The position numbers and the translations under genes were made by a program. From positions 1 through 60,982 of the forward strand of contig JAWCLB010000004.1 of the NCBI GenBank assembly GCA_039091735.1: 60,982 nucleotides of DNA. The letters run 5' to 3'. Each line of letters begins with the position of its first letter. Position 1 is the stretch's first letter. The DNA is from Candidatus Aenigmatarchaeota archaeon. Its GTDB lineage: Archaea > Aenigmatarchaeota > Aenigmatarchaeia > GW2011-AR5 > JAHLMP01. Below are positions 1 through 26,523 of this stretch, in pieces. The notes beneath the pieces were generated by a model. The model was not told where the DNA came from. It worked only from the letters and a program-made list of their open reading frames with translations, and made no database searches.

Positions 1-207
1 GCTAAGTAACTGCTCAGGATTGCGATCAGAGGTATCGCAATCATCGGCCTCGGAGCCGCTGTAGTCTTTATCACTCAAAGGAGGAGGTTGGTGAAGTGAA
101 GAGGCATGGAGAGGTGACAACTGGATTTAATCCTGAAAATAAACCCCTTTACATTTATATTTGACATTCAATGATGAAGTTAAATAATTAAAAAAGATGT
201 TAAATTT

Positions 208-624
208 ATGAAAAAATTTGAGTTTATCGATATAACAACAGCAGATGTGGCTTTTTTGGCTTATGGCAAAGACCTGAACGAACTTTTTGAAAATGCTGCC
301 TTAGCTATGTTTGAAGTTATGATAAACACAAAACACGTTAAGCCTATAATAAAGAGGGAAGTTAAATGCGAAGGAAATGATATAAATTCTTTGATGTTCA
401 GGTGGCTCAACGAGCTCTTGGTTTTTGTGGATTCTGAAAATCTTGCCTTCTCATCTTTTAATGTAAAGATAGAGGATAAAACCCTCAGAGCAATCTGCAA
501 GGGCGAGAAAATAGACGAAAAGAAACATGAATTAAGAACAGAGGTAAAGGCAGCGACAATGCATTTGATGCGAATTGTAAAGGTTAATACAAACTGGGAA
601 GCTCGTATTATTTTGGATATCTAA
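208..624 (+). CDS. Archease (RtcB tRNA ligase cofactor)
   Basis: N-terminal FEFIDITTADV, LNELFENAALAMF and C-terminal EVKAATMH...ARIILDI motifs; typical length. Confidence 0.93.
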   Translation: MKKFEFIDITTADVAFLAYGKDLNELFENAALAMFEVMINTKHVKPIIKREVKCEGNDINSLMFRWLNELLVFVDSENLAFSSFNVKIEDKTLRAICKGEKIDEKKHELRTEVKAATMHLMRIVKVNTNWEARIILDI

Positions 625-732
625 GTAATATTTGCTAATAGAGTCTAACCTCTACATTGTCACAGTGAAAGGGTTTGATGACAAGATTAAGAGGAGTAGG
701 GTTGAGAAGTTAGTAATGTTGAGATAAATTTC

Positions 733-1302
733 TCATGGTGGATTTGTGCAAGGCTCATCTCCAAAGTATTTATACCACCAATTCTCGTTAAGAGGAAGCT
801 CACAGCTTCCCCATGGATATTTAGCTTCTTTTTGCATTATTTCCACAACCTTTTGATTAAGATCAAAACCATTATGTCTTTCGGCATAATACTGGCATAG
901 ATATTCTCTGCATTTTGACCATGTTATTGTTTCATTATTTTCTGAGCAAACATAAAAATGCGGGCAGAAGATTGCATCCTCACAAACAGGCCAAGGCTCT
1001 ATAAAAGCAAGCCCTTCCAGTGATTTAATCATATCAACTTTTCCAGGATTCAGTAAGTTACTGGTTTTTGGTGGTAATACTCTATTTGAGCAGAATAGAA
1101 CAGCCAATCCAACATTACCAGTTGCAAAATACTCTCTACATCTACCTTCGCATGATACCCTTTTCTCCTTAATAATTATTTCGGGTATATTAACCCATTT
1201 CATGCAGCCACCACAGATATATGCTCTGGCTACTAAGATTACTATTCCTACCATAGCAGCAATAATCAAAAGAATCAACAAGCCTATTATTACCTTGCGC
1301 AT
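733..1302 (-). CDS. Membrane-anchored or secreted Cys-rich protein, last gene of the pilin-like cluster
   Basis: MRK followed by a long hydrophobic stretch; many Cys; same strand as the cluster. Confidence 0.75.
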   Translation of the reverse strand: MRKVIIGLLILLIIAAMVGIVILVARAYICGGCMKWVNIPEIIIKEKRVSCEGRCREYFATGNVGLAVLFCSNRVLPPKTSNLLNPGKVDMIKSLEGLAFIEPWPVCEDAIFCPHFYVCSENNETITWSKCREYLCQYYAERHNGFDLNQKVVEIMQKEAKYPWGSCELPLNENWWYKYFGDEPCTNPP

Positions 1303-1537
1303 CTATCAACCTTTTCTCTAACAATAATTATTTAAGTATCCAATCTATTAAAAGCTTATTGACAAATGCACTGCTCAAGATGAAGGCAGAGTTCATCTCA
1401 GAAGAGAGGATTCCATTTTATAGAATTTTATAAAACGCTATCCTTTTTTGTTTAATATTTTAGATAAGAAGCAAAGAAAACTATGAGATGCAATTCCTTT
1501 ATAGAACAAAATATTGAAAGCGAGTAATTCTTGAGAT

Positions 1538-1663
1538 TTAGGAGAAGAGAGAAGACAAAAACTCGAATCCACCGGTGGCATTCAATATTTTTGAGATAAT
1601 GAAGAAAAAGAGCGCTATTATTAACACAAACAAAATAGCTTTCAATAATAATTTCATGTCCAT
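1538..1663 (-). CDS. Small single-TM protein (41 aa, MDMKLLLKAILFVLIIALFFFIISKILNATGGFEFLSSLFS)
   Basis: Read manually, below the ORF-track cutoff; begins 13 nt after the previous stop, with a GGCGA SD-like site. Confidence 0.6.
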   Translation of the reverse strand: MDMKLLLKAILFVLIIALFFFIISKILNATGGFEFLSSLFS

Positions 1664-1676
1664 TTTGATCTCGCCA

Positions 1677-1958
1677 CTAAATGCATCTTCCGATGCTCAT
1701 ATCACATTTATTTTTGCAGTGCGCATCAACAAAGCATGTGCATTCGCCCAAAACACAAACACCAATTCTCTCTTTGTTGATAATGCAGTCGTTATCGCTC
1801 CCGCATGAGTTTGGTCTTCTCTCTAAGACAGTTTTCTGGACATTTGAGAACATGCCAAAGTTGATTTCACCTGTGAAGAGCTTGTAAACAGTAATTAATG
1901 CTAAAATAGTTATCATCACCCCTACTCCGAATCCTAGCATTGTATATACATCTGCCAA
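1677..1958 (-). CDS. Small membrane protein with C-terminal Cys-rich module
   Basis: TTG start after GGTGGTG; N-terminal TM; CGSDNDC...CVLGECTC...HCKNKC...GRC. Confidence 0.75.
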   Translation of the reverse strand: MADVYTMLGFGVGVMITILALITVYKLFTGEINFGMFSNVQKTVLERRPNSCGSDNDCIINKERIGVCVLGECTCFVDAHCKNKCDMSIGRCI

Positions 1959-1979
1959 TTAACACCACCACTTTTATAT

Positions 1980-3392
1980 CTATTTCTCTGTTCTGACAAA
2001 CTTCCATTCTACCCAATCGTTATTTGTCATTTCAAGATCATCCCAAGTTCCATCACCAAGGTCTATTCCTGCTGGGTTTAAGACAAGCCTCTGCGTTCCT
2101 GGGTTTCCTGTTTTTGGATCATAAGGGATTCTTTCATATTTTTGTTTCTCTTTATTATATCCTGACCTCGATACAGTGTAATTATAGTGCCATCCTTCAT
2201 AATAAGCTGCCTGGGCCATTGGCTCACACAATTCAGGAAAATTATTCTTTAGAGAATACTCATCAACCCCCCATGTATCTCTCTCAGCCTCCCAATAATT
2301 ATCCTTTTCGTTCCATGGTCCTACATCTAAAACAGGAACTATAACACTCTTGCCAGTCTTTGGATATGTAACCTTAATCTTTACAGGATTATCAAGATAG
2401 CGCTCTCCTTCAGGTGCACTAAATCTGTATGGAAGGGCGGCAAGTCTATCCTTCTCTTTTATTTTATAATTATATGCAGTGATTTTGCCAACCAAACCAA
2501 GACGCGTTGCAAAAACCTTGCATCCCTCTTCTTTAATTTTCCATTTTCCTATTCCATTCTCAAAATTACATTTATATTTTTCTTCTCCTGCTAAAATCTC
2601 CGCGCCATCATTATCTTCTGTACACGCCCACCACATTGCTTCGCTATCAGAATAACCGCATATAATCCCATACTTTACCTTGTAAACATAATCTCCCAAC
2701 TCATTTTTCTGCAATAAGTGGCAACACCCATCTCTTGGACACATTTCATGATATTTTTTGAATTCTTCGCATTTATCGAATGCCCCTGAACCAAATCCAG
2801 CATCTAGCGTTGGTGTTACATCATTGCATATAGTTGTTCCGAAGCATCCCACTGAAGAGATAACAGTATATTCTCCTTTCGTTCCATCTTGCCTTATGCA
2901 ATCGCATTTGCCCTCATAACTAGCGAGTACATCTTTCAGATTTCTCATACCATCTTGAATTATTGTGCCCTGATTCACATAAAATATTCTATTCCCTCCT
3001 CTATGTATTGTAGGAGCTAATCCGCTGTGGTCTGAAACAAAGACTGCACATTTATCGCCTTTCCAGTTCTTTGGAGCAAAATATGCTTTTGCCTCACCCT
3101 TAGCAAGAGGATTTACAACCATATGTTCTATGCTGTCCAATAAATGAAACTCGTATATATACACCATTCCATAATCAGGTCTTCCTCTTTCCTGAACATT
3201 TTGTAAGTAGATATGAACTGCCTCGTGTCCCTGAGTTAAATTTATTGATCTCCAACCTTCTCCAGAAAGGCCAGAAAGAAGCTCATTAAAGGTTCTGACT
3301 ATGCCTCCTGGATTAAACAAAACTATGCTCAATGCTAAAACCCCAACAAATATTATAATCATTGTGAGCAGATTCATTGACATTGATTTCAT
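1980..3392 (-). CDS. Pilin-like (class III signal) Cys-rich protein with C-terminal RlpA-like DPBB (lytic transglycosylase-like) domain
   Basis: Likely start MKS|MSMNLLTMIIIFVG immediately after the upstream stop. C-terminal motifs GKITA..AALP..KIKVTYPKTGKSVIVPVLDVGPW..GIDLG match the RlpA/DPBB pattern. Confidence 0.75.
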   Translation of the reverse strand: MKSMSMNLLTMIIIFVGVLALSIVLFNPGGIVRTFNELLSGLSGEGWRSINLTQGHEAVHIYLQNVQERGRPDYGMVYIYEFHLLDSIEHMVVNPLAKGEAKAYFAPKNWKGDKCAVFVSDHSGLAPTIHRGGNRIFYVNQGTIIQDGMRNLKDVLASYEGKCDCIRQDGTKGEYTVISSVGCFGTTICNDVTPTLDAGFGSGAFDKCEEFKKYHEMCPRDGCCHLLQKNELGDYVYKVKYGIICGYSDSEAMWWACTEDNDGAEILAGEEKYKCNFENGIGKWKIKEEGCKVFATRLGLVGKITAYNYKIKEKDRLAALPYRFSAPEGERYLDNPVKIKVTYPKTGKSVIVPVLDVGPWNEKDNYWEAERDTWGVDEYSLKNNFPELCEPMAQAAYYEGWHYNYTVSRSGYNKEKQKYERIPYDPKTGNPGTQRLVLNPAGIDLGDGTWDDLEMTNNDWVEWKFVRTEK

Positions 3393-3393
3393 T

Positions 3394-4656
3394 TTAATCG
3401 CAATCCTCAGAGCATGTTTCTTTGCTCTCTCCACATTCGCATAATCCATCGCCGCAATAACCCAAAGTAAATTTTGCTGAGTATGACAAGGCTTGTCGAG
3501 GGAATTCGTGCCTTTCTGGAAGTCTCATCTCGTGAGTTACATCTTCTGCACAGTCAAGATAGCGACGATTACATGCATAATAGTGTTCGACTAGAGGATC
3601 ACAAAGAAGTAATTTACACTCATTTGGGTTTTTAATTATTAATTTATATCCAGCATCCAACATATTTTTGGCATCTTTTCTTATTGCCCTTATATCAATT
3701 CGTATTTGATTTTTATTAAGACTCGAAACTTTTTCAGGGGTAAACCATGAATACTGAAACATTAAATTCTTCTCACAATCTTTAGGATTATCGCATATCC
3801 AAATAGCTCTAGAGTTTTCATACGCTTCATAATAGCCATATTTAACATCACTGTTGTCTGTCTTATCCCATGCCCTTGGGCATATCTCCAGTTTACAAGA
3901 GCCTATTTCAAAAAGGTCACATGCGGGTTCAGTAGACCATAACTCTCTTTCAACTCTTATCCTTTCTCCTTTTTCCCAATCAAATGCAAGGTCTTCAATT
4001 ATTTCACCTACTGTTATAATTCCTGCATCCCATTTTATATTATCTTTTCCATCACAAAATAATATGCATGCCTTCCCCTCTATATCATCACATGAATAAT
4101 CATAATATTGCTTACCAAATTCATCTTCTTTGCATACCCTACCACATTCTTTATTTCCAAAATCTTCCATGCCACAAAGCTCAGTATTTAACTTAAGCCC
4201 CCATGCAGTAATTATCCATTCATTGACTATTCTTTCAGATGGGCAATATTCCCTCAAATCATAATCCTCACATCTTGTTTTGATTACTTTTATAGGATTT
4301 TTCGAAAAAAACCTTGTCAGCTCTGGATTTATCGGTGGCGGTATTCTGTCTTTGCAACAATCACAATTCTTGCAATTAATCCACAGAGATTGTATTATCT
4401 TAGTTATTATCAAAGACGTCTGGTACGTGTCACACTCCCAATATTTGTCTTTTTTAACGCATTTCTCACTTAGCTGAGCGTTTATGTCTTCTATGTCCTT
4501 TTCAACCCTCGCTTTCATAGCATCCATTCTAGCCCTTTCTAAACCACCATGAGCAGCCCATATCAACGCGAAAATTCCACCAAAGACAATAAAAAGGGGT
4601 ATAATGATCTTTACTATGATGTTGAAAATCTGCTCATGGCCCAACTGACCCTTCAT
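3394..4656 (-). CDS. Pilin-like protein with class III signal peptide, Cys-rich, C-terminal CGDGxC repeat
   Basis: MKG|QLGHEQ followed by a hydrophobic helix; start overlaps the upstream stop (TGATG); ends CGDGLCECGESKETCSEDCD. Confidence 0.8.
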   Translation of the reverse strand: MKGQLGHEQIFNIIVKIIIPLFIVFGGIFALIWAAHGGLERARMDAMKARVEKDIEDINAQLSEKCVKKDKYWECDTYQTSLIITKIIQSLWINCKNCDCCKDRIPPPINPELTRFFSKNPIKVIKTRCEDYDLREYCPSERIVNEWIITAWGLKLNTELCGMEDFGNKECGRVCKEDEFGKQYYDYSCDDIEGKACILFCDGKDNIKWDAGIITVGEIIEDLAFDWEKGERIRVERELWSTEPACDLFEIGSCKLEICPRAWDKTDNSDVKYGYYEAYENSRAIWICDNPKDCEKNLMFQYSWFTPEKVSSLNKNQIRIDIRAIRKDAKNMLDAGYKLIIKNPNECKLLLCDPLVEHYYACNRRYLDCAEDVTHEMRLPERHEFPRQALSYSAKFTLGYCGDGLCECGESKETCSEDCD

Positions 4657-4859
4657 CAGCACACACCACACAATTCACATTTAATAGGATTGATTAAAGG
4701 TATCTTATTGATTACTCTTGCCATTGGCTTGCATATCCACTTACATATGTTGCAGACGCTCTCACTCATCTGCCCGAAGATTACAAGCAATACGGCCAAA
4801 AATATGATTGCTAATATTATTACAACCAGAATGCTGAGCCCTGTAACAGCAGCCTTCAT
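4656..4859 (-). CDS. Small pilin-like protein (class III signal peptide)
   Basis: MKA|AVTGLSILVVIILAIIF; GGTGA SD; Cys-rich tail. Confidence 0.75.
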   Translation of the reverse strand: MKAAVTGLSILVVIILAIIFLAVLLVIFGQMSESVCNICKWICKPMARVINKIPLINPIKCELCGVC

Positions 4860-4866
4860 TTTTATC

Positions 4867-4971
4867 TCACCCAATAAAATTGCCGACTTTTGAAATAAAT
4901 AAAATCATCAGAACAGCTATTGCCGTTACCATTATGACTGCAAATAGTGTCCACCATGCAATTCCTTTCAT
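4867..4971 (-). CDS. Very small pilin-like peptide (34 aa, MKGIAWWTLFAVIMVTAIAVLMILFISKVGNFIG)
   Basis: Read manually; KG| cleavage motif plus hydrophobic helix; GGTG SD; tightly packed in the operon. Confidence 0.65.
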   Translation of the reverse strand: MKGIAWWTLFAVIMVTAIAVLMILFISKVGNFIG

Positions 4972-4984
4972 AAGGCACCACTTA

Positions 4985-5101
4985 TCAGATTGTAATCTCT
5001 AAAAATTTATAGCTATAGAGATAAAATATGCCTATTAAGATGGCAATAATAGCCATAACTAATGCAAGCCACATAACTGTTCTTATAGTCTCTTTCTCCA
5101 T
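4985..5101 (-). CDS. Small single-TM protein (38 aa, MEKETIRTVMWLALVMAIIAILIGIFYLYSYKFLEITI), first gene of the cluster
   Basis: Read manually; single TM; AT-rich TATA-like sequence upstream. Confidence 0.6.
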   Translation of the reverse strand: MEKETIRTVMWLALVMAIIAILIGIFYLYSYKFLEITI

Positions 5102-7474: not shown

Positions 7475-8677
7475 ATGAAGCAAAAAACAAGAATAAGCTT
7501 AATCGTATTGCTATTTTTGGTTTCTGTGGATTTTGCATTATCAAACCAGAAATCTGAGGTAGTTGTTATCCCATCTGAGGTTGTTAATATAACCCACGAA
7601 GCGATAAAGACTGAAACTATAAAGATAGATATCCGCAAAGCAGAAGAGATTCATGCAATACCCAAAGGTTGTGAAAATTTGTGTGGTGATGGTATCTGTC
7701 AAAGGATAGTATGTATGGCACTTGGCTGTCCTTGCCCAGAAACAGCAGAGAGTTGTCCACAAGATTGCAAAAAAATTGGTTTAGCAAATCCAGCTAGCGC
7801 TTATTGTGAAGAGTCTGGTTATAAATTAGATATTAGAAAAGACGCCGAAGGTAATGAATATGGTGTTTGCGTTTTTCCTGATGGCAATGAGTGCGAGGAG
7901 TGGGCATTTTATAAGGGAGATTGTGGTCAGGAATACAAAAAGATTGAACAAGAAAAAATAGAGGAAGTTATTAAAGCTCGGCCAACAATATCTTTGCCTA
8001 ATGAAACAAGTATCAAGATTTTGCCGTCAGAGGCTAAGCCAATTTTGATTGAAGATAGACCTGTTGAATTTACAGGCATAGAAGAGACACCAACGATCTC
8101 TGTAAAGATAAGGCCAAAAATACATCCAGGGATGCCTGCTAAAGCATCTCAAATTGTATGCCAAGCCACCTTGAGAGAAGAGATTGGAAAATGCATTTCA
8201 GCTGGAAATTCAACAGATGTTTGCAAGGCTGAGTATGAAAGAATTGTTAAAGAGAAATGTTTTAACAAAACAGCAGAAGAAATTGCTAACTTATTGCCTG
8301 CTGTGTCAGTTAAAGTAGACATAGATAAAGAAAATAAAGAGACAAGAATTGAAGTCGCTAATACCACAGCAGTTACGCGAGAAATTCTGAAGTTTAAGCA
8401 ATCATCAATGAGGATAGAAACGCCAAAAGGCGATGTTGTTGTACAAGTATTGCCAAATGCAGCTACAGAAGTGGCTATATCCAAAGAACCACAAAAGATT
8501 GATATTGTCGAACTAAGACTTGAAGAAGAAAAACCAATTTACAGGATTGGTGGAAGCAAGGATGCTAAATTGCTTTGGATAATTCCTGTAGTAGTGCCTG
8601 TAACAACACATATAAGCGGCGAAACAGGGGAAATTATTAAAATAGAAAAGCCTTGGTGGAGTTTCTTAGCTAGGTAA
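7475..8677 (+). CDS. Secreted multidomain protein: CGDGxC repeat, DUF333 domain, C-terminal KPWW domain
   Basis: Signal peptide; CGDGICQ..CPETAESCPQDC; GLANPASAYCEESG...CVFPDGNECEEWAFYKGDC (DUF333); ends KLLWIIPV...ETGEIIKIEKPWWSFL. Confidence 0.8.
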   Translation: MKQKTRISLIVLLFLVSVDFALSNQKSEVVVIPSEVVNITHEAIKTETIKIDIRKAEEIHAIPKGCENLCGDGICQRIVCMALGCPCPETAESCPQDCKKIGLANPASAYCEESGYKLDIRKDAEGNEYGVCVFPDGNECEEWAFYKGDCGQEYKKIEQEKIEEVIKARPTISLPNETSIKILPSEAKPILIEDRPVEFTGIEETPTISVKIRPKIHPGMPAKASQIVCQATLREEIGKCISAGNSTDVCKAEYERIVKEKCFNKTAEEIANLLPAVSVKVDIDKENKETRIEVANTTAVTREILKFKQSSMRIETPKGDVVVQVLPNAATEVAISKEPQKIDIVELRLEEEKPIYRIGGSKDAKLLWIIPVVVPVTTHISGETGEIIKIEKPWWSFLAR

Positions 8678-8966: not shown

Positions 8967-9074
8967 ATGCCACATACTTATTAGTATAATAATAGGATTG
9001 AGTATCTTGAAAATTAAAAGATTTTAAAAGATTGCTGACAAATTCTTATGATTACAATTGTTTATGTGATAGAT

Positions 9075-9548
9075 ATGCAAAAACAGGAAAAGATAGAGCA
9101 AAAGAATATTATTAGATTGCTGTCTACTGATTTAGACTCTTCGCTTCCGCTCATATCTGCGCTGAGAAGAATAAAAGGCATTGGATTTATGTTTTCCAAT
9201 GCTATTTGCAACCATCTTGGACTAGACCCAAAAATCAAAATTGGCTCATTAAGCGATGAACAGATAAAAAAGGTGGAAGAAACCATAAAAAACCCGCAGT
9301 TTTATCCATGGTTATTGAATAGAAGAAAAGATCCAAGAACAGGAAAAGACATGCATATAGTCAGTGGTGATATACCTCTAAAATTAAGAGAGGACATAAG
9401 CCTATTGAAAAAAATTAGATGTTATAGAGGGATAAGGCATGAGCTCGGTCTGCCTGTTCGAGGACAAAGAACAGGAGGCGGTAGTTTTAGAAAAGGAAAG
9501 ACTGTTGGTGTGGTAAGGAAAAAGGCTGTAACACAACAAAAGAAGTAA
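9075..9548 (+). CDS. rps13: 30S ribosomal protein S13 (uS13)
   Basis: IKGIG, WLLNRRKD, YRGIRHELGLPVRGQRT. Confidence 0.96.
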   Translation: MQKQEKIEQKNIIRLLSTDLDSSLPLISALRRIKGIGFMFSNAICNHLGLDPKIKIGSLSDEQIKKVEETIKNPQFYPWLLNRRKDPRTGKDMHIVSGDIPLKLREDISLLKKIRCYRGIRHELGLPVRGQRTGGGSFRKGKTVGVVRKKAVTQQKK

Positions 9549-9558
9549 AGGTGTTGGT

Positions 9559-10062
9559 ATGGGACATCCCAGAAGACTGAAAAAGAAATATGAAAGGCCA
9601 AAAAATCCATTTTACAATCTTGAGGAAGAGAAAAGTCTATTAAAGGAGTTCGGATTAAAGAAAAAGGCAGAGCTGTGGAGAGTACAAACAGAACTCAGAA
9701 AAATCAGAAAGAGGGCAATGAATCTAAATGCAAGAAGGAATCAAGAAGAGGAGAAGAAATTACTAGAAAAGTTAAATAAAATAGGTCTTAATGTCAAAAC
9801 CCTTGACGATGTTCTAAAATTAACTGTGAAAGACTTGTTATCAAGAAGGTTGCAGACTGTCATATTTAAGAAAGGTTTGAGCAGGAGCATAAAACACTCT
9901 AGACAATTGATTACCCATGGGCATGTTCTGATTAATAACAGGAGGGTGATCTTTCCAAGCTTTCTCGTGCCATCTGCACTTGAGGATAAAATTGTGTTAA
10001 ATATAAATAAGGGCACAAGGAGTGTGCCAGAAAATAAAGAGGCTGAGATGCAAAATGCCTAA
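9559..10062 (+). CDS. rps4: 30S ribosomal protein S4 (uS4)
   Basis: [34 protein letters not shown]. Confidence 0.96.
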
Positions 10063-24052: not shown

Positions 24053-25261
24053 ATGAAAAGAGCGATCTTTCTATTTATTTTAACGAGCATTCTAATAGTA
24101 ACTACAACAGAGGGTGCTGATATTGAAGGAATTTCTTTAAGAGTAACTTTTGTAAATCAAAAACCATACCCAGCTGAACCTGGCGAATATGTAGATTTGC
24201 TGTTCAAGGTTGAGAATTATGGAATCAAAAGAGCAGAGAATGTAGTTTTTGAGTTGCTGCCAGAATATCCATTTTCTTTGGATCCTGATACGAGCGCTAT
24301 CAAAGAGCTTGGCGCTGTTTTGGGCACACAAACAGATGAAAATGCCTTTTTGATAAAATACAAAGTAAGAGTAGACAAATATGCAATAGATGGTGAGAAT
24401 GAGATAAAGCTGAAATACACTTATGGGGCAGGAGGATTTGAAAAGTTTTATGTCACAAAGGCGTTTAACATAACAGTCTCGAATCCACGAACAGATTTTG
24501 ATGTTGTTGTGCAGGATTCAGCAGCTACCTTTACAACATTGATTATAGCAAATACAGGAGCAAACACTGCATATTCTGTGATTGTAAAAATCCCCGAGCA
24601 GGAAGGTTTTGAAATATCAGGACCATCTGCTTATGTTATTGGAACAATAAATGCTGGAAACTATACGTCAGTGGACCTTCCAGTAATATCTTTAAAATCG
24701 CATGGAAATTTGATAGTTGAGATCCATTACACTGACAAAATAGGTATAAGGCGTATTATTCAAAAGAATATTACAATAACACAAGCCTTTGCTGAAGATT
24801 TTGATGTTGTTGTGCAGGATTCAACAGAAACCTCTACAATGTTGGCAATAGCTAACATAGGGTCGAGTACTGCATACTCTGTGATTGTAAAAATTCCTGA
24901 ACAAAAAAATTACAGGGTAACAGGAGTTTCTACCAGCCTTCTTGGCAATATAGGCGCTGGAGAATACGCACTCTCAAGCTTTCAGCTAACACCTATTAGA
25001 AGTGCTTTTAACACCTCTGCAGACAGAAGCCTTATTGTCGAAATCTCTTACACAGACGCGCTTGGCATAAGGAGAACAATCACGAAAGAGGTTAGGTTAG
25101 ACACATCTATGAAAGGAGCAGTAGGAGAGGCAACAGTACGACAGGTGCAACGTCAAACACAAGCAACGGGGGGTAGCGGTCTTGTGTATATTGGTGTTGG
25201 CACGATCGGAATAATCGCAATAGTAGTATTCTTCAGATTCAGAAAGAGGAAAAAGAAATGA
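24053..25261 (+). CDS. COG1361 S-layer-domain protein with C-terminal TM anchor
   Basis: Signal peptide, PYPAEPGE...VENYG, repeated Ig-like ANTG/ANIG modules, TM plus RKRKKK tail; typical position in a MacB-type operon. Confidence 0.82.
   Translation: MKRAIFLFILTSILIVTTTEGADIEGISLRVTFVNQKPYPAEPGEYVDLLFKVENYGIKRAENVVFELLPEYPFSLDPDTSAIKELGAVLGTQTDENAFLIKYKVRVDKYAIDGENEIKLKYTYGAGGFEKFYVTKAFNITVSNPRTDFDVVVQDSAATFTTLIIANTGANTAYSVIVKIPEQEGFEISGPSAYVIGTINAGNYTSVDLPVISLKSHGNLIVEIHYTDKIGIRRIIQKNITITQAFAEDFDVVVQDSTETSTMLAIANIGSSTAYSVIVKIPEQKNYRVTGVSTSLLGNIGAGEYALSSFQLTPIRSAFNTSADRSLIVEISYTDALGIRRTITKEVRLDTSMKGAVGEATVRQVQRQTQATGGSGLVYIGVGTIGIIAIVVFFRFRKRKKK
24493..24823 (+). repeat. Intragenic tandem domain duplication (303-bp period)
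   Basis: AGATTTTGATGTTGTTGTGCAGGATTCA is identical at 24493 and 24796; a further shared block TCTGTGATTGTAAAAAT. Confidence 0.8.
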
Positions 25262-26523
25262 AATTTAATGACATCATAAGGCTTTCTATTAATAATCTTT
25301 CGCATAGGGGATTAAGAAGCTGGCTGACTATTCTGGGGATAGTTATAGGTGTGGCAGCAGTTGTTGCAATACTTTCTATCGGAGCAGGCATGCAACATAT
25401 TATTTCAACTCAATTGAGTGGCTTGGGTGCAGATATAGTTACTGTTTCTCCAGGTTATAGCAGGGCTGTTGGAATGAATTTTGGTGTTGACATGAGGCAA
25501 ACCAGATTGCAATCTACTCAAAAAACCCAAGATTTAACTGATAGGGACATTCAGGTGATAAAATCTGTTCCAGGAGTCAAATTTGTGAATGGTATAGTCT
25601 CTGGTAGGGCAAACATTACTTATATGGCACAATCTACCCTTGTAACACTTCAGGGAGTTAATCCATTGACCTGGAAGGAGATGTCAATTCCTGAATTGGA
25701 TTCTGGAAGATACTTGATGCCAGGTGATGGAAATGTTGTCGTGGTTGGGTATAGAATCGCAAATAACATGTTCAAGCAACCAATACTCATAAATACGCAA
25801 ATAAGCATTAGTGGAAAGTCATTTAGAGTTGTTGGTATATTAAAAGAATCTGGAGGCTTTGGCGGCGTGAGCGGATATGACAACACGATTTTCATGCCAA
25901 CAAATGTAGCAAGGACAATTATTAATATTAGTACGAATCAGTTTTCATCCATACAGATTAAAGTAGCAGACCCAGAGTCAGTCAATGAAATCACAGCTAA
26001 CATTGAGCAGAGTTTGATGCTTTCAAGGCGTGTTACAGAAAATACAAAAGACTTTACTATTATATCTGCCCAAGCAATCCATGAGACAATTTCAAATGTA
26101 ATGGGAACAATGAGCCTATTCCTAGCTGGAATAGCTGCTGTCTCATTGATAGTAGGAGCTATAGGCATTGCAAATACTATGTTTATGTCTGTTATGGAGA
26201 GAACAAGACAGATAGGAACTCTAAAGGCCTTGGGAGCTACTAACTTTGAGATAATGAAATTATTTTTATTTGAATCTGCAACGATAGGTCTTATAGGTGG
26301 TTTAATAGGCGTTTTTCTGGGATTTATCGCTTCTGGCATAATTTCTGAGCTTGGGATTAGAATTATGGAAGCCGGAAGAATGAGAATAAGTATAACGCTA
26401 ATCACACCTGAGCTGGTTTTATTTGCCATAGCTTTCTCTGTTCTTATTGGCATGGTTTCTGGAATATTGCCCGCTAGAAGAGCAGCACAATTACAGCCTG
26501 TGGAGGCACTGCGTTATGAGTAA
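25258..26523 (+). CDS. ABC transporter permease (MacB/FtsX family)
   Basis: RSWLTILGIVIGVAAVV, GIANTMFMSVMERTRQIG, PARRAAQLQPVEALRYE. Confidence 0.95.
   Translation: MKFNDIIRLSINNLSHRGLRSWLTILGIVIGVAAVVAILSIGAGMQHIISTQLSGLGADIVTVSPGYSRAVGMNFGVDMRQTRLQSTQKTQDLTDRDIQVIKSVPGVKFVNGIVSGRANITYMAQSTLVTLQGVNPLTWKEMSIPELDSGRYLMPGDGNVVVVGYRIANNMFKQPILINTQISISGKSFRVVGILKESGGFGGVSGYDNTIFMPTNVARTIINISTNQFSSIQIKVADPESVNEITANIEQSLMLSRRVTENTKDFTIISAQAIHETISNVMGTMSLFLAGIAAVSLIVGAIGIANTMFMSVMERTRQIGTLKALGATNFEIMKLFLFESATIGLIGGLIGVFLGFIASGIISELGIRIMEAGRMRISITLITPELVLFAIAFSVLIGMVSGILPARRAAQLQPVEALRYE

Follow-up and report, generated by a model that had tools for sequence, protein, structure and literature searches.

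RlpA is described as a lytic transglycosylase whose catalytic double-psi beta-barrel (DPBB) domain acts on denuded glycans (PMC6895207), and PA4485 of Pseudomonas aeruginosa as a DPBB protein that has a conserved Asp70 and resembles expansin, MltA and endoglucanase V in structure (PMC3539698). For small-genome DPANN archaea a paper of 2021 speaks of bacterial-type wall-glycan domains on extracellular proteins, perhaps serving attachment to bacterial hosts (PMC8204110). Here we describe a locus in an archaeon of Candidatus Aenigmatarchaeota, on the 60,982-nucleotide (nt) contig JAWCLB010000004.1, whose whole length we call the window. Seven genes of its minus strand, g1 to g7 (5101-1538), form a conserved chromosomal operon, known so far from two genera of one family, and the product of the fifth of them, g5 (1980-3392, minus strand; 470 aa, 14 Cys), ends in a barrel of the RlpA kind. 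The best explanation of the whole, which we hold to be moderately probable, is that the operon provides surface-assembled proteins which hold this barrel outward for binding, and possibly for cleaving, the wall glycan of a partner cell.

The general idea of DPANN archaea equipped with bacterial-type wall-glycan domains is, as far as the text of 2021 goes, already in print (PMC8204110). The proteins treated there are up to 3,000 aa long and carry another kind of lytic transglycosylase domain, whereas here a DPBB sits on a protein of 470 aa within a seven-gene operon; the SLT domain (PF01464) was not found in the window's genome, which is 64% complete. What sets the present case apart is an RlpA-like DPBB of a family without a Pfam model, placed at the end of a Cys-rich module in an operon of seven membrane proteins, together with natural variants of the module that have or lack the barrel. 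A literature search found no DPBB domain on an archaeal pilin-like protein.

The barrel occupies residues 287-470 of g5 (1983..2534, minus strand). An earlier reading of this DNA, made by a model from the letters and their translations (the sequence-only reading), had assigned a double-psi beta-barrel to this end of the protein; the C-terminal motifs which it quoted are present in the g5 translation, and structure prediction confirms a barrel of the RlpA/expansin/barwin kind. An AlphaFold2 model computed from a 64-row alignment of the barrel family (A1) has a predicted local distance difference test (pLDDT) score of 89.6 and a predicted template modelling (pTM) score of 0.84; a single-sequence prediction of the whole of g5 has a pLDDT of 35.4. 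The barrel core comprises model residues ~4-71 and ~155-180, and residues ~72-154 make up a helix-bearing insert, in the window ~80 residues between the DVGPWN and GIDL motifs. Across the family this insert has ~45-80 residues, and it is longer in the window, in its orthologue in genome G006 (see below) and in the proteins P0005 and P0006 than in the family bulk.

Compared by VIA-align with 48,161 solved chains, the barrel model fits PA4485 best (4avr: Z 12.9, root-mean-square deviation (rmsd) 1.7 Å, 89 of 94 aligned), and beyond this entry 11 further DPBB entries stand at Z ≥ 8. The DPBB domain of the cyanophage A-1(L) baseplate (8kea) follows with Z 11.8, rmsd 2.1 Å and 97 residues aligned at 23% identity, then kiwellin (4pmk: Z 11.7, 3.4 Å, 103 aligned), a Streptomyces papain inhibitor (5ntb: Z 11.2, 3.4 Å, 100 aligned), loosenin (9ce9: Z 10.6, 2.4 Å, 91 aligned) and expansins (4jcw and others: Z 9.2-10.2, 2.6-3.5 Å, 91-96 aligned); MltA (2g6g) gives Z 6.0, 3.1 Å and 78 aligned. 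Foldseek returned 10 matches against the PDB at E ≤ 1e-3, all of them DPBB proteins, and 6 at the same threshold against BFVD, a set of predicted viral structures, where five of the six, and also the match at rank 7, are named rare lipoprotein A or RlpA-like. That the C-terminal domain of g5 would adopt the DPBB fold is, on these models, close to certain. The phage baseplate is a parallel also in that its DPBB sits on a structure contacting the host envelope, but it is a viral structural protein, and there is no relation to g5 at the sequence level.

Profile searches weigh against a close kinship with RlpA: DPBB_1 (PF03330) has no match in g5 and, at E ≤ 10, none in the whole genome, and hhalign aligns the family profile with E. 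coli RlpA weakly (E 0.12, probability 0.5%, 46 columns). The 3D family (PF06725) has no match in g5 either, and none of the 64 family members matches DPBB_1 or 3D at E ≤ 0.01; against PDB sequences the barrel alone found only a chance YceI match (E 0.17), and the family profile found nothing at E ≤ 10. The weak hhalign alignment places T-T-A-N-G-H on T-A-S-G-E and P-V-W-D-V-G-P-W on R-I-N-D-R-G-P-Y, which is the register expected of homologues, and the pattern shared with E. coli RlpA in it runs T-A-x-G-[H/E], A-[L/H]-P, G-[R/K]-S-V, D-[V/R]-G-P. Within the RlpA-like DPBB superfamily the barrel family is a branch without annotation; its members are called 'hypothetical protein' or 'secreted protein' or bear labels taken from other domains, and no precomputed Pfam domain lies over the barrel. 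No Pfam partner occurs in more than six of the 64 members (among the partners are SH3_3 in 6, LGFP in 2, PG_binding_1 in 1), and those found in bacterial members point to cell walls.

With RlpA and PA4485 the g5 barrel shares the fold, the motif register of the weak hhalign alignment and two conserved Asp, and RlpA-like phage models lead the viral search. It differs from RlpA in the insert between DVGPWN and GIDL and in the missing DPBB_1 match; moreover, g5 is archaeal, is anchored by an N-terminal helix, and has neither a lipobox Cys nor a SPOR domain (no Pfam or NCBIfam match), and a Tyr takes the place of the family His. Expansins, loosenins, kiwellin and barwin likewise share the fold (Z 8.8-11.7) and are extracellular, often disulfide-rich proteins which act on or bind wall polymers, but g5 has no D2/CBM63 domain (the protein ends 4 residues past the barrel) and no Pfam match, identity to them is 12-22%, and they come from plants, fungi or bacteria and have the walls of plants or fungi as their targets.

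Does the barrel act as an enzyme? The 64 family members agree, wholly or almost so, in R11, T19, H23, D29, D70, D78, R85, R149, D158 and D161 (domain numbering), of which the window's barrel lacks only H23. It thus has D70 (g5 residue 356), shared by 63 of 64 members, and D158, the Asp of GIDL (g5 residue 444), shared by 62 of 64. In the model the strand A-G-I-D-L is followed by a helix (E155-159, H161-167), and we take this arrangement to be that of the catalytic-Asp strand in MltA, expansin and P. aeruginosa RlpA; this is a reading of the motif, as hhalign stops at DVGPW, and E. coli RlpA has a Ser at the corresponding place (V-I-S-L-S).

It is quite conceivable, though we lean somewhat to the other side, that the barrel is no enzyme and serves adhesion or defence, either as a glycan-binding or wall-loosening domain of the expansin or loosenin type or as a domain that binds proteins or inhibits proteases, comparable to kiwellin and the papain inhibitor. 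All these non-enzymes are among the fold matches and score near PA4485. The conservation of D29, D70, D78, R85, R149, D158 and D161 across 64 diverse members has the look of an active site and speaks for catalysis, as do the resemblance of the GIDL strand and its helix to the catalytic strand of the enzymes and the additional cell-wall-binding domains of some bacterial members. PA4485 itself is reported to have bound none of the sugars tried in soaks (PMC3539698), which counts on the other side together with a peculiarity of the window. At 2466-2474 (g5 residues 307-309) it reads Tyr-Asn-Tyr for the N21-G22-H23 of the family (present in 56, 60 and 60 of 64 members), so that the near-invariant Gly-His is gone, and this particular copy may be altered or inactive; the orthologue in G006 keeps Gly-His. 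We find some glycan binding or cleavage by the barrel reasonably probable, and a true lytic transglycosylase acting on peptidoglycan unlikely.

In 185,579 species genomes, scanned by pattern, at least 548 confirmed loci of the barrel were found. Of the best 80 of these, 79 are bacterial and one is the archaeal contig of G006; the bacterial ones include Micromonospora, Streptomyces, Pseudonocardia, Promicromonospora, Chloroflexaceae and the Archangium/Cystobacter/Pyxidicoccus group, and furthermore Verrucomicrobiota, Acidobacteriota and Planctomycetota. A resemblance to secreted proteins of actinobacteria and Chloroflexi, which the sequence-only reading had pointed out, was found to hold, with other bacterial groups added. 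Within the window's order the barrel occurs in 2 of 70 genomes, the window's own and G006, a rarity which fits horizontal acquisition as that reading had proposed it. A quick, unrooted maximum-likelihood tree was computed from 81 rows: the window, 45 of the 80 loci (no more than two per genus, 35 omitted) and 35 of the 141 barrel-bearing representatives introduced below. In it the window and G006 form a clade (SH-like approximate likelihood ratio support, SH-aLRT, 99), sister (97) to the metagenomic P0005 and P0006; all four have the long insert, and a long branch separates this group from the bacterial bulk.

With such a distribution, a transfer from bacteria to archaea is the economical reading, horizontal acquisition of the barrel is well supported, and its bacterial origin is likely. 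The tree tempers this conclusion, being unrooted, with P0005 labelled only '[bacterium]' and the nearest outgroup proteins having no reliable taxonomy. One more archaeal member was seen, P0009 of Candidatus Altiarchaeota (233 aa), which has a barrel of this family following a Sec-like signal and no Cys-rich module; it lies far from the window clade in the tree and may be a separate acquisition.

As the family is almost wholly bacterial, one could suspect contamination with bacterial DNA, or a chimeric assembly, behind the part that codes for the barrel. This we find hardly credible and reject. The barrel is in frame with a module of archaeal lineage, on a 61-kb contig that carries genes for archease, ribosomal S13 and S4, an archaeal-type prolyl-tRNA synthetase, aspartyl-tRNA synthetase, Lhr helicase and phosphoglycerate kinase; GC content is even throughout, and the same fusion stands at the same locus in G006. 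The contig belongs to a 465-kb genome of 21 contigs, 63.6% complete. Relatives in the order have genomes of 0.4-1.2 Mb, and the organism is likely a DPANN-type archaeon with a small genome, for which the analysis itself suggested Nanobdellota as the probable affiliation.

The comparison with related genomes concerns G000, as we label the window's genome, and G006, G001 and G008, which are all 3 genomes of one sister genus of the same family; P numbers denote representative proteins from a search and L numbers metagenome contigs. In that search, through 1.84 billion representatives, g5 had 406 matches at E ≤ 1e-3, and the best 150 of them were re-scanned with the C-terminal 184 residues: 141 contain the barrel domain, most of them downstream of Sec-type signals and with architectures that differ widely, and 9 match residues 1-290 only. 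P0003, an orthologue of the G006 type, matches both parts of g5. Ahead of the barrel, residues 28-286 (2535..3311, minus strand) form a conserved Cys-rich module which has different C-termini in other lineages, and an alignment of it (A3, 13 rows) has 22 invariant columns, 8 of them Cys.

Three outcomes follow this module: it stops (G001, G008, P0004), it is followed by the barrel (the window, G006), or it is followed by an unrelated beta-rich, Cys-containing domain (8 distant relatives). In G001 and G008 g5 stops exactly at the junction, after ..G-K-W-V-E-A. The barrel is, judging by these sequences, an add-on to the conserved Cys-rich module, because one syntenic relative carries it on g5 and two end g5 exactly where it would begin; the idea of a swappable C-terminal domain, put forward in the sequence-only reading for comparison among related genomes, is borne out in this form. 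Between the window and G006, the barrel domains are 69% identical and the g5 proteins 59% (residues 1-467). Because identity is higher in the domain than in the whole protein, the simplest scenario would be one gain, before the two genera split, of a barrel coming from bacteria, followed by its loss in the line of G001 and G008.

The operon around g5 is compact. All eight open reading frames (ORFs) between 5101 and 733 lie on the minus strand, g1 to g7 tightly packed with spacers of 13, 7, -1 (a TGATG overlap), 1, 21 and 13 nt, while 235 nt separate g7 from g8; the layout given in the sequence-only reading, eight co-oriented genes with the first seven closely spaced, is confirmed by these coordinates. 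Each of the eight products opens with one hydrophobic helix, and those of g1 to g7 are single-pass membrane proteins. The operon opens with g1 (4985..5101, minus strand), a peptide of 38 aa without Cys, followed by g2 (4867..4971, minus strand), which has 34 aa, MKG and one hydrophobic helix, no Cys and no ectodomain. The next gene, g3 (4656..4859, minus strand; 67 aa), adds to MKA and a helix a short tail with 6 Cys, and its stop overlaps the start of g4 by 1 nt. The g4 product (3394..4656, minus strand; 420 aa) has MKGQLGHE, a helix and an ectodomain with 28 Cys, and belongs to no known family. After g5, which starts with MKS and a hydrophobic helix (residues 1-27; 3312..3392, minus strand), come g6 (1677..1958, minus strand; 93 aa, TTG start, an N-terminal helix without the K-G/A motif and an 8-Cys tail) and g7 (1538..1663, minus strand), a 41-aa single-pass membrane peptide without Cys, which closes the conserved cluster. 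Cys-rich products had been said to be in the majority, and so they are, if not all: five of eight (g3, g4, g5, g6 and g8), with no Cys in g1, g2 and g7.

For g3, g4, g5, g6 and g8 no Pfam or NCBIfam model was found at meaningful E-values, and g5 has no Pfam family at E ≤ 1. BLASTP found no significant similarity between g4 and g5 (best E 0.17) or between g8 and g4 (best E 0.43). In the ESM Atlas the best score of g4 is only 0.77, to hypothetical proteins of Nanobdellota and Aenigmatarchaeota clusters, and residues 1-290 of g5 have no match.

The gene order is kept in relatives. In G006 and G001, as in the window, the full g1-g7 series is flanked by a PRC-barrel gene and an archease gene, with its order unchanged, and G008 has the same cluster as far as its contig reaches. 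The g4 gene is present in 4 of 70 genomes of the order and g5 in 4 of 41 relatives including G000, the other three being in both cases the sister-genus genomes. Even the three tiny ORFs (g1, g2, g7) are conserved in the syntenic loci: g1 in G006 and G001 has a common N-terminal pattern ME+ETxRTxMW, g2 begins MKGIEWW in G006 and ..FKGFEWW in G001, and g7 begins MDIKLLYRA.. in G006, G001 and G008, where g6 begins MADLYTML... The g3 orthologues begin MQGISGLS (G006) and MIKGNLGAV (G001), the close g5 orthologues have MKG, MKA or KKKG at the start, and none of the 3 g4 orthologues aligned departs from K-[G/A]-QLGHE or from any of the 28 Cys. We also considered whether the cluster stems from a mobile element and decided against it; in all three syntenic loci the cluster has the same chromosomal place, with no integrase-like ORF seen there.

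Distant versions of the cluster, made up of very small helix peptides, proteins rich in Cys and a gene like g5, occur on the metagenome contigs L104, L105 and L107; L107 has a small gene similar to g1 and a g2 counterpart reading MRKIHWKTLF, without Gly or Ala at the corresponding place, and L110 and L111 have the g5-like gene alone. On L104 a HerA-type ATPase gene (DUF87, E 3.7e-30; 42-1550, plus strand) was noticed ~4.5 kb upstream of the distant cluster, with unrelated genes between.

In membrane proteins the positive side of a helix stays inside, and disulfide-rich domains are extracytoplasmic. As the products combine a positive N-terminus, a single helix and many conserved Cys, their ectodomains and the barrel should face outward, and extracellular display of the barrel is very probable. 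The operon encodes seven single-pass membrane proteins, three of them helix-only peptides and four with disulfide-rich ectodomains. Their N-termini can be read either as signal anchors or as class III-like signals. Four consecutive products, g2 to g5, start with MKGIAWW, MKAAVTG, MKGQLGHE and MKSMSMN, with K-[G/A/S] directly before the helix; this observation of the sequence-only reading was reproduced, and its interpretation, class III signals cut by a prepilin peptidase, is possible but somewhat doubtful.

Some features are shared with archaeal type IV pilins and minor-pilin operons: a short positive N-terminus, K-[G/A/S], ~20 hydrophobic residues and several genes per operon. The K-[G/A/S] position is kept in close orthologues of g2 (3/3), g4 (3/3) and g5 (4/4), and the invariant Q-L-G-H-E of g4 gives Gln at +1 and Glu at +5. 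The genome does have a T2SSE pilus ATPase on contig C1, two matches to the T2SSF platform on contig C15, and bona fide Pilin_N genes, of which a whole-genome search found two only, both on contig C21. All 8 other genomes of the family contain Peptidase_A24, the three with the cluster among them.

Many points tell against the pilin interpretation. Pilin_N (PF07790) does not match g3, g4 or g5 (g2 was not scanned singly), g1, g6 and g7 have no K-[G/A/S] motif, and three members of the operon are helix-only. The K/R-G/A motif is missing in 5 of 10 distant relatives of g5, and likewise in three genes of the distant clusters, the g5-like one of L104 and those of L107 that resemble g2 and g4; even in the close G006 orthologue of g3 the start is MQG. 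The loose pattern [KR][GAS] plus helix fits 40 of ~130 ORFs with an N-terminal helix in the genome, counted on a crude ORF set. After cleavage g2 would be a bare 31-residue helix with no globular part. An A24 prepilin peptidase was not found in the window's 63.6%-complete genome, the ATPase and platform genes lie away from the cluster, and no pilus ATPase, platform or assembly gene stands beside it in the window or in any of the three syntenic loci.

It could well be that there is no pilus and that g1 to g7 encode uncleaved type II, N-terminally anchored proteins, forming a fixed surface complex with the barrel on a membrane-bound stalk and the MK[GAS] start being incidental. For this reading, which we place close to an even chance, the loss of the motif in distant relatives, the missing Pilin_N matches, the abundance of the motif in the genome and the three syntenic loci without assembly genes all speak; the motif retained in close g2, g4 and g5 orthologues with the Gln and Glu of g4, the pilus genes elsewhere in the genome and the A24 gene of all eight family relatives do not suit it. 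Prepilin-type processing or a pilus-like fibre, for its part, is possible but somewhat doubtful. In favour of processing, a Peptidase_A24 gene (E 1.8e-7) was seen on L107 (4927-5769, minus strand), 2.2 kb downstream of the distant homologous cluster and on the other strand. Further runs of adjacent genes with MK[GA] and a helix are found at C12:30952-32887, C12:42212-46788, C21:26-1635 and 9027-9981, and C1:63492-65268.

In the explanation that we prefer, the products of g1 to g7 would assemble at the cell surface with the barrel held outward, whichever way they are anchored, and the barrel would bind, and possibly cleave, the beta-1,4-linked wall glycan of a partner cell. Mur_ligase_M was found in none of nine genomes of the family (completeness 64-87%), which agrees with a cell that makes neither murein nor pseudomurein, and supports the description, given with the sequence-only reading, of an archaeon without peptidoglycan. 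The target may nevertheless be something other than bacterial peptidoglycan: the pseudomurein, methanochondroitin or S-layer glycans of an archaeal host, chitin or cellulose of the environment, or the cell's own envelope at division. Most of the hosts known for DPANN are archaea, the DPBB superfamily includes proteins that act on cellulose and chitin as well as on murein, and many bacterial members of the family come from saprophytic Actinomycetota, Myxococcota and Chloroflexota. We judge such a target rather unlikely, considering that the nearest named phage structural relatives are RlpA-like and that the partner domains of bacterial members are SH3_3, LGFP and PG_binding_1. Murein-directed domains are, moreover, reported from DPANN archaea (PMC8204110). 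The most ambitious combination, in which g2 to g5 would be true minor pilins and their fibre would be tipped with an active, bacterially derived RlpA-like transglycosylase opening the sacculus of a bacterial host locally, seems to us quite improbable.

The locus bears on the questions of how DPANN archaea recognise and open their hosts and whether some of them live on bacteria instead of archaea, and it offers a compact candidate: a surface protein of 470 residues with a clean domain junction, versions with and without the barrel in sister genomes, and a barrel of small size. The barrel family has at least 548 loci and no Pfam model, and a function established for one member would carry over to hundreds of secreted proteins of Streptomyces, Micromonospora, Chloroflexaceae and myxobacteria. 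Were the minor-pilin transglycosylase combination true, it would amount to a cross-domain, pilus-borne device for breaching walls, and the Pfam-less DPBB family, were its members to cleave murein, would be a new and widespread class of secreted enzymes in Actinomycetota, Chloroflexota and Myxococcota.

The eighth gene, g8 (733..1302, minus strand), encodes a membrane protein of 189 aa with 12 Cys, and had been counted to the cluster by the sequence-only reading. According to our analysis it is a neighbour only: it is absent from the syntenic loci, where archease follows directly after g7, and it belongs to a separate family of paralogues, with copies on G000 contigs C21 (32-574) and C17 (5157-5687), 57% and 36% identical to it, and others in G006 and G001. 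The N-termini of the C21 and C17 paralogues read ..KAQMSLEMIIGLLILL and ..KGQMSLEIIIGLLILL, class III-like with Glu at +5. In the window g8 (here 733-1345, minus strand) starts MRKVIIGLLILL directly after two in-frame stops, and an out-of-frame ORF just upstream reads ..KRLIDAQ..; the N-terminus of g8 may be frameshifted or re-started.

Two further genes of the window encode proteins with a signal-like N-terminus. One, at 7475-8677 on the plus strand, 2.4 kb from the cluster and on the opposite strand to it, specifies a protein of 400 aa which has a Cys-rich stretch and matches DUF333 (E 2.7e-21). The other, in the stretch 24053-26523 of the plus strand, specifies a 402-aa protein with no Pfam match and lies directly 5' of a MacB/FtsX-type permease gene, with which it overlaps by 4 nt.

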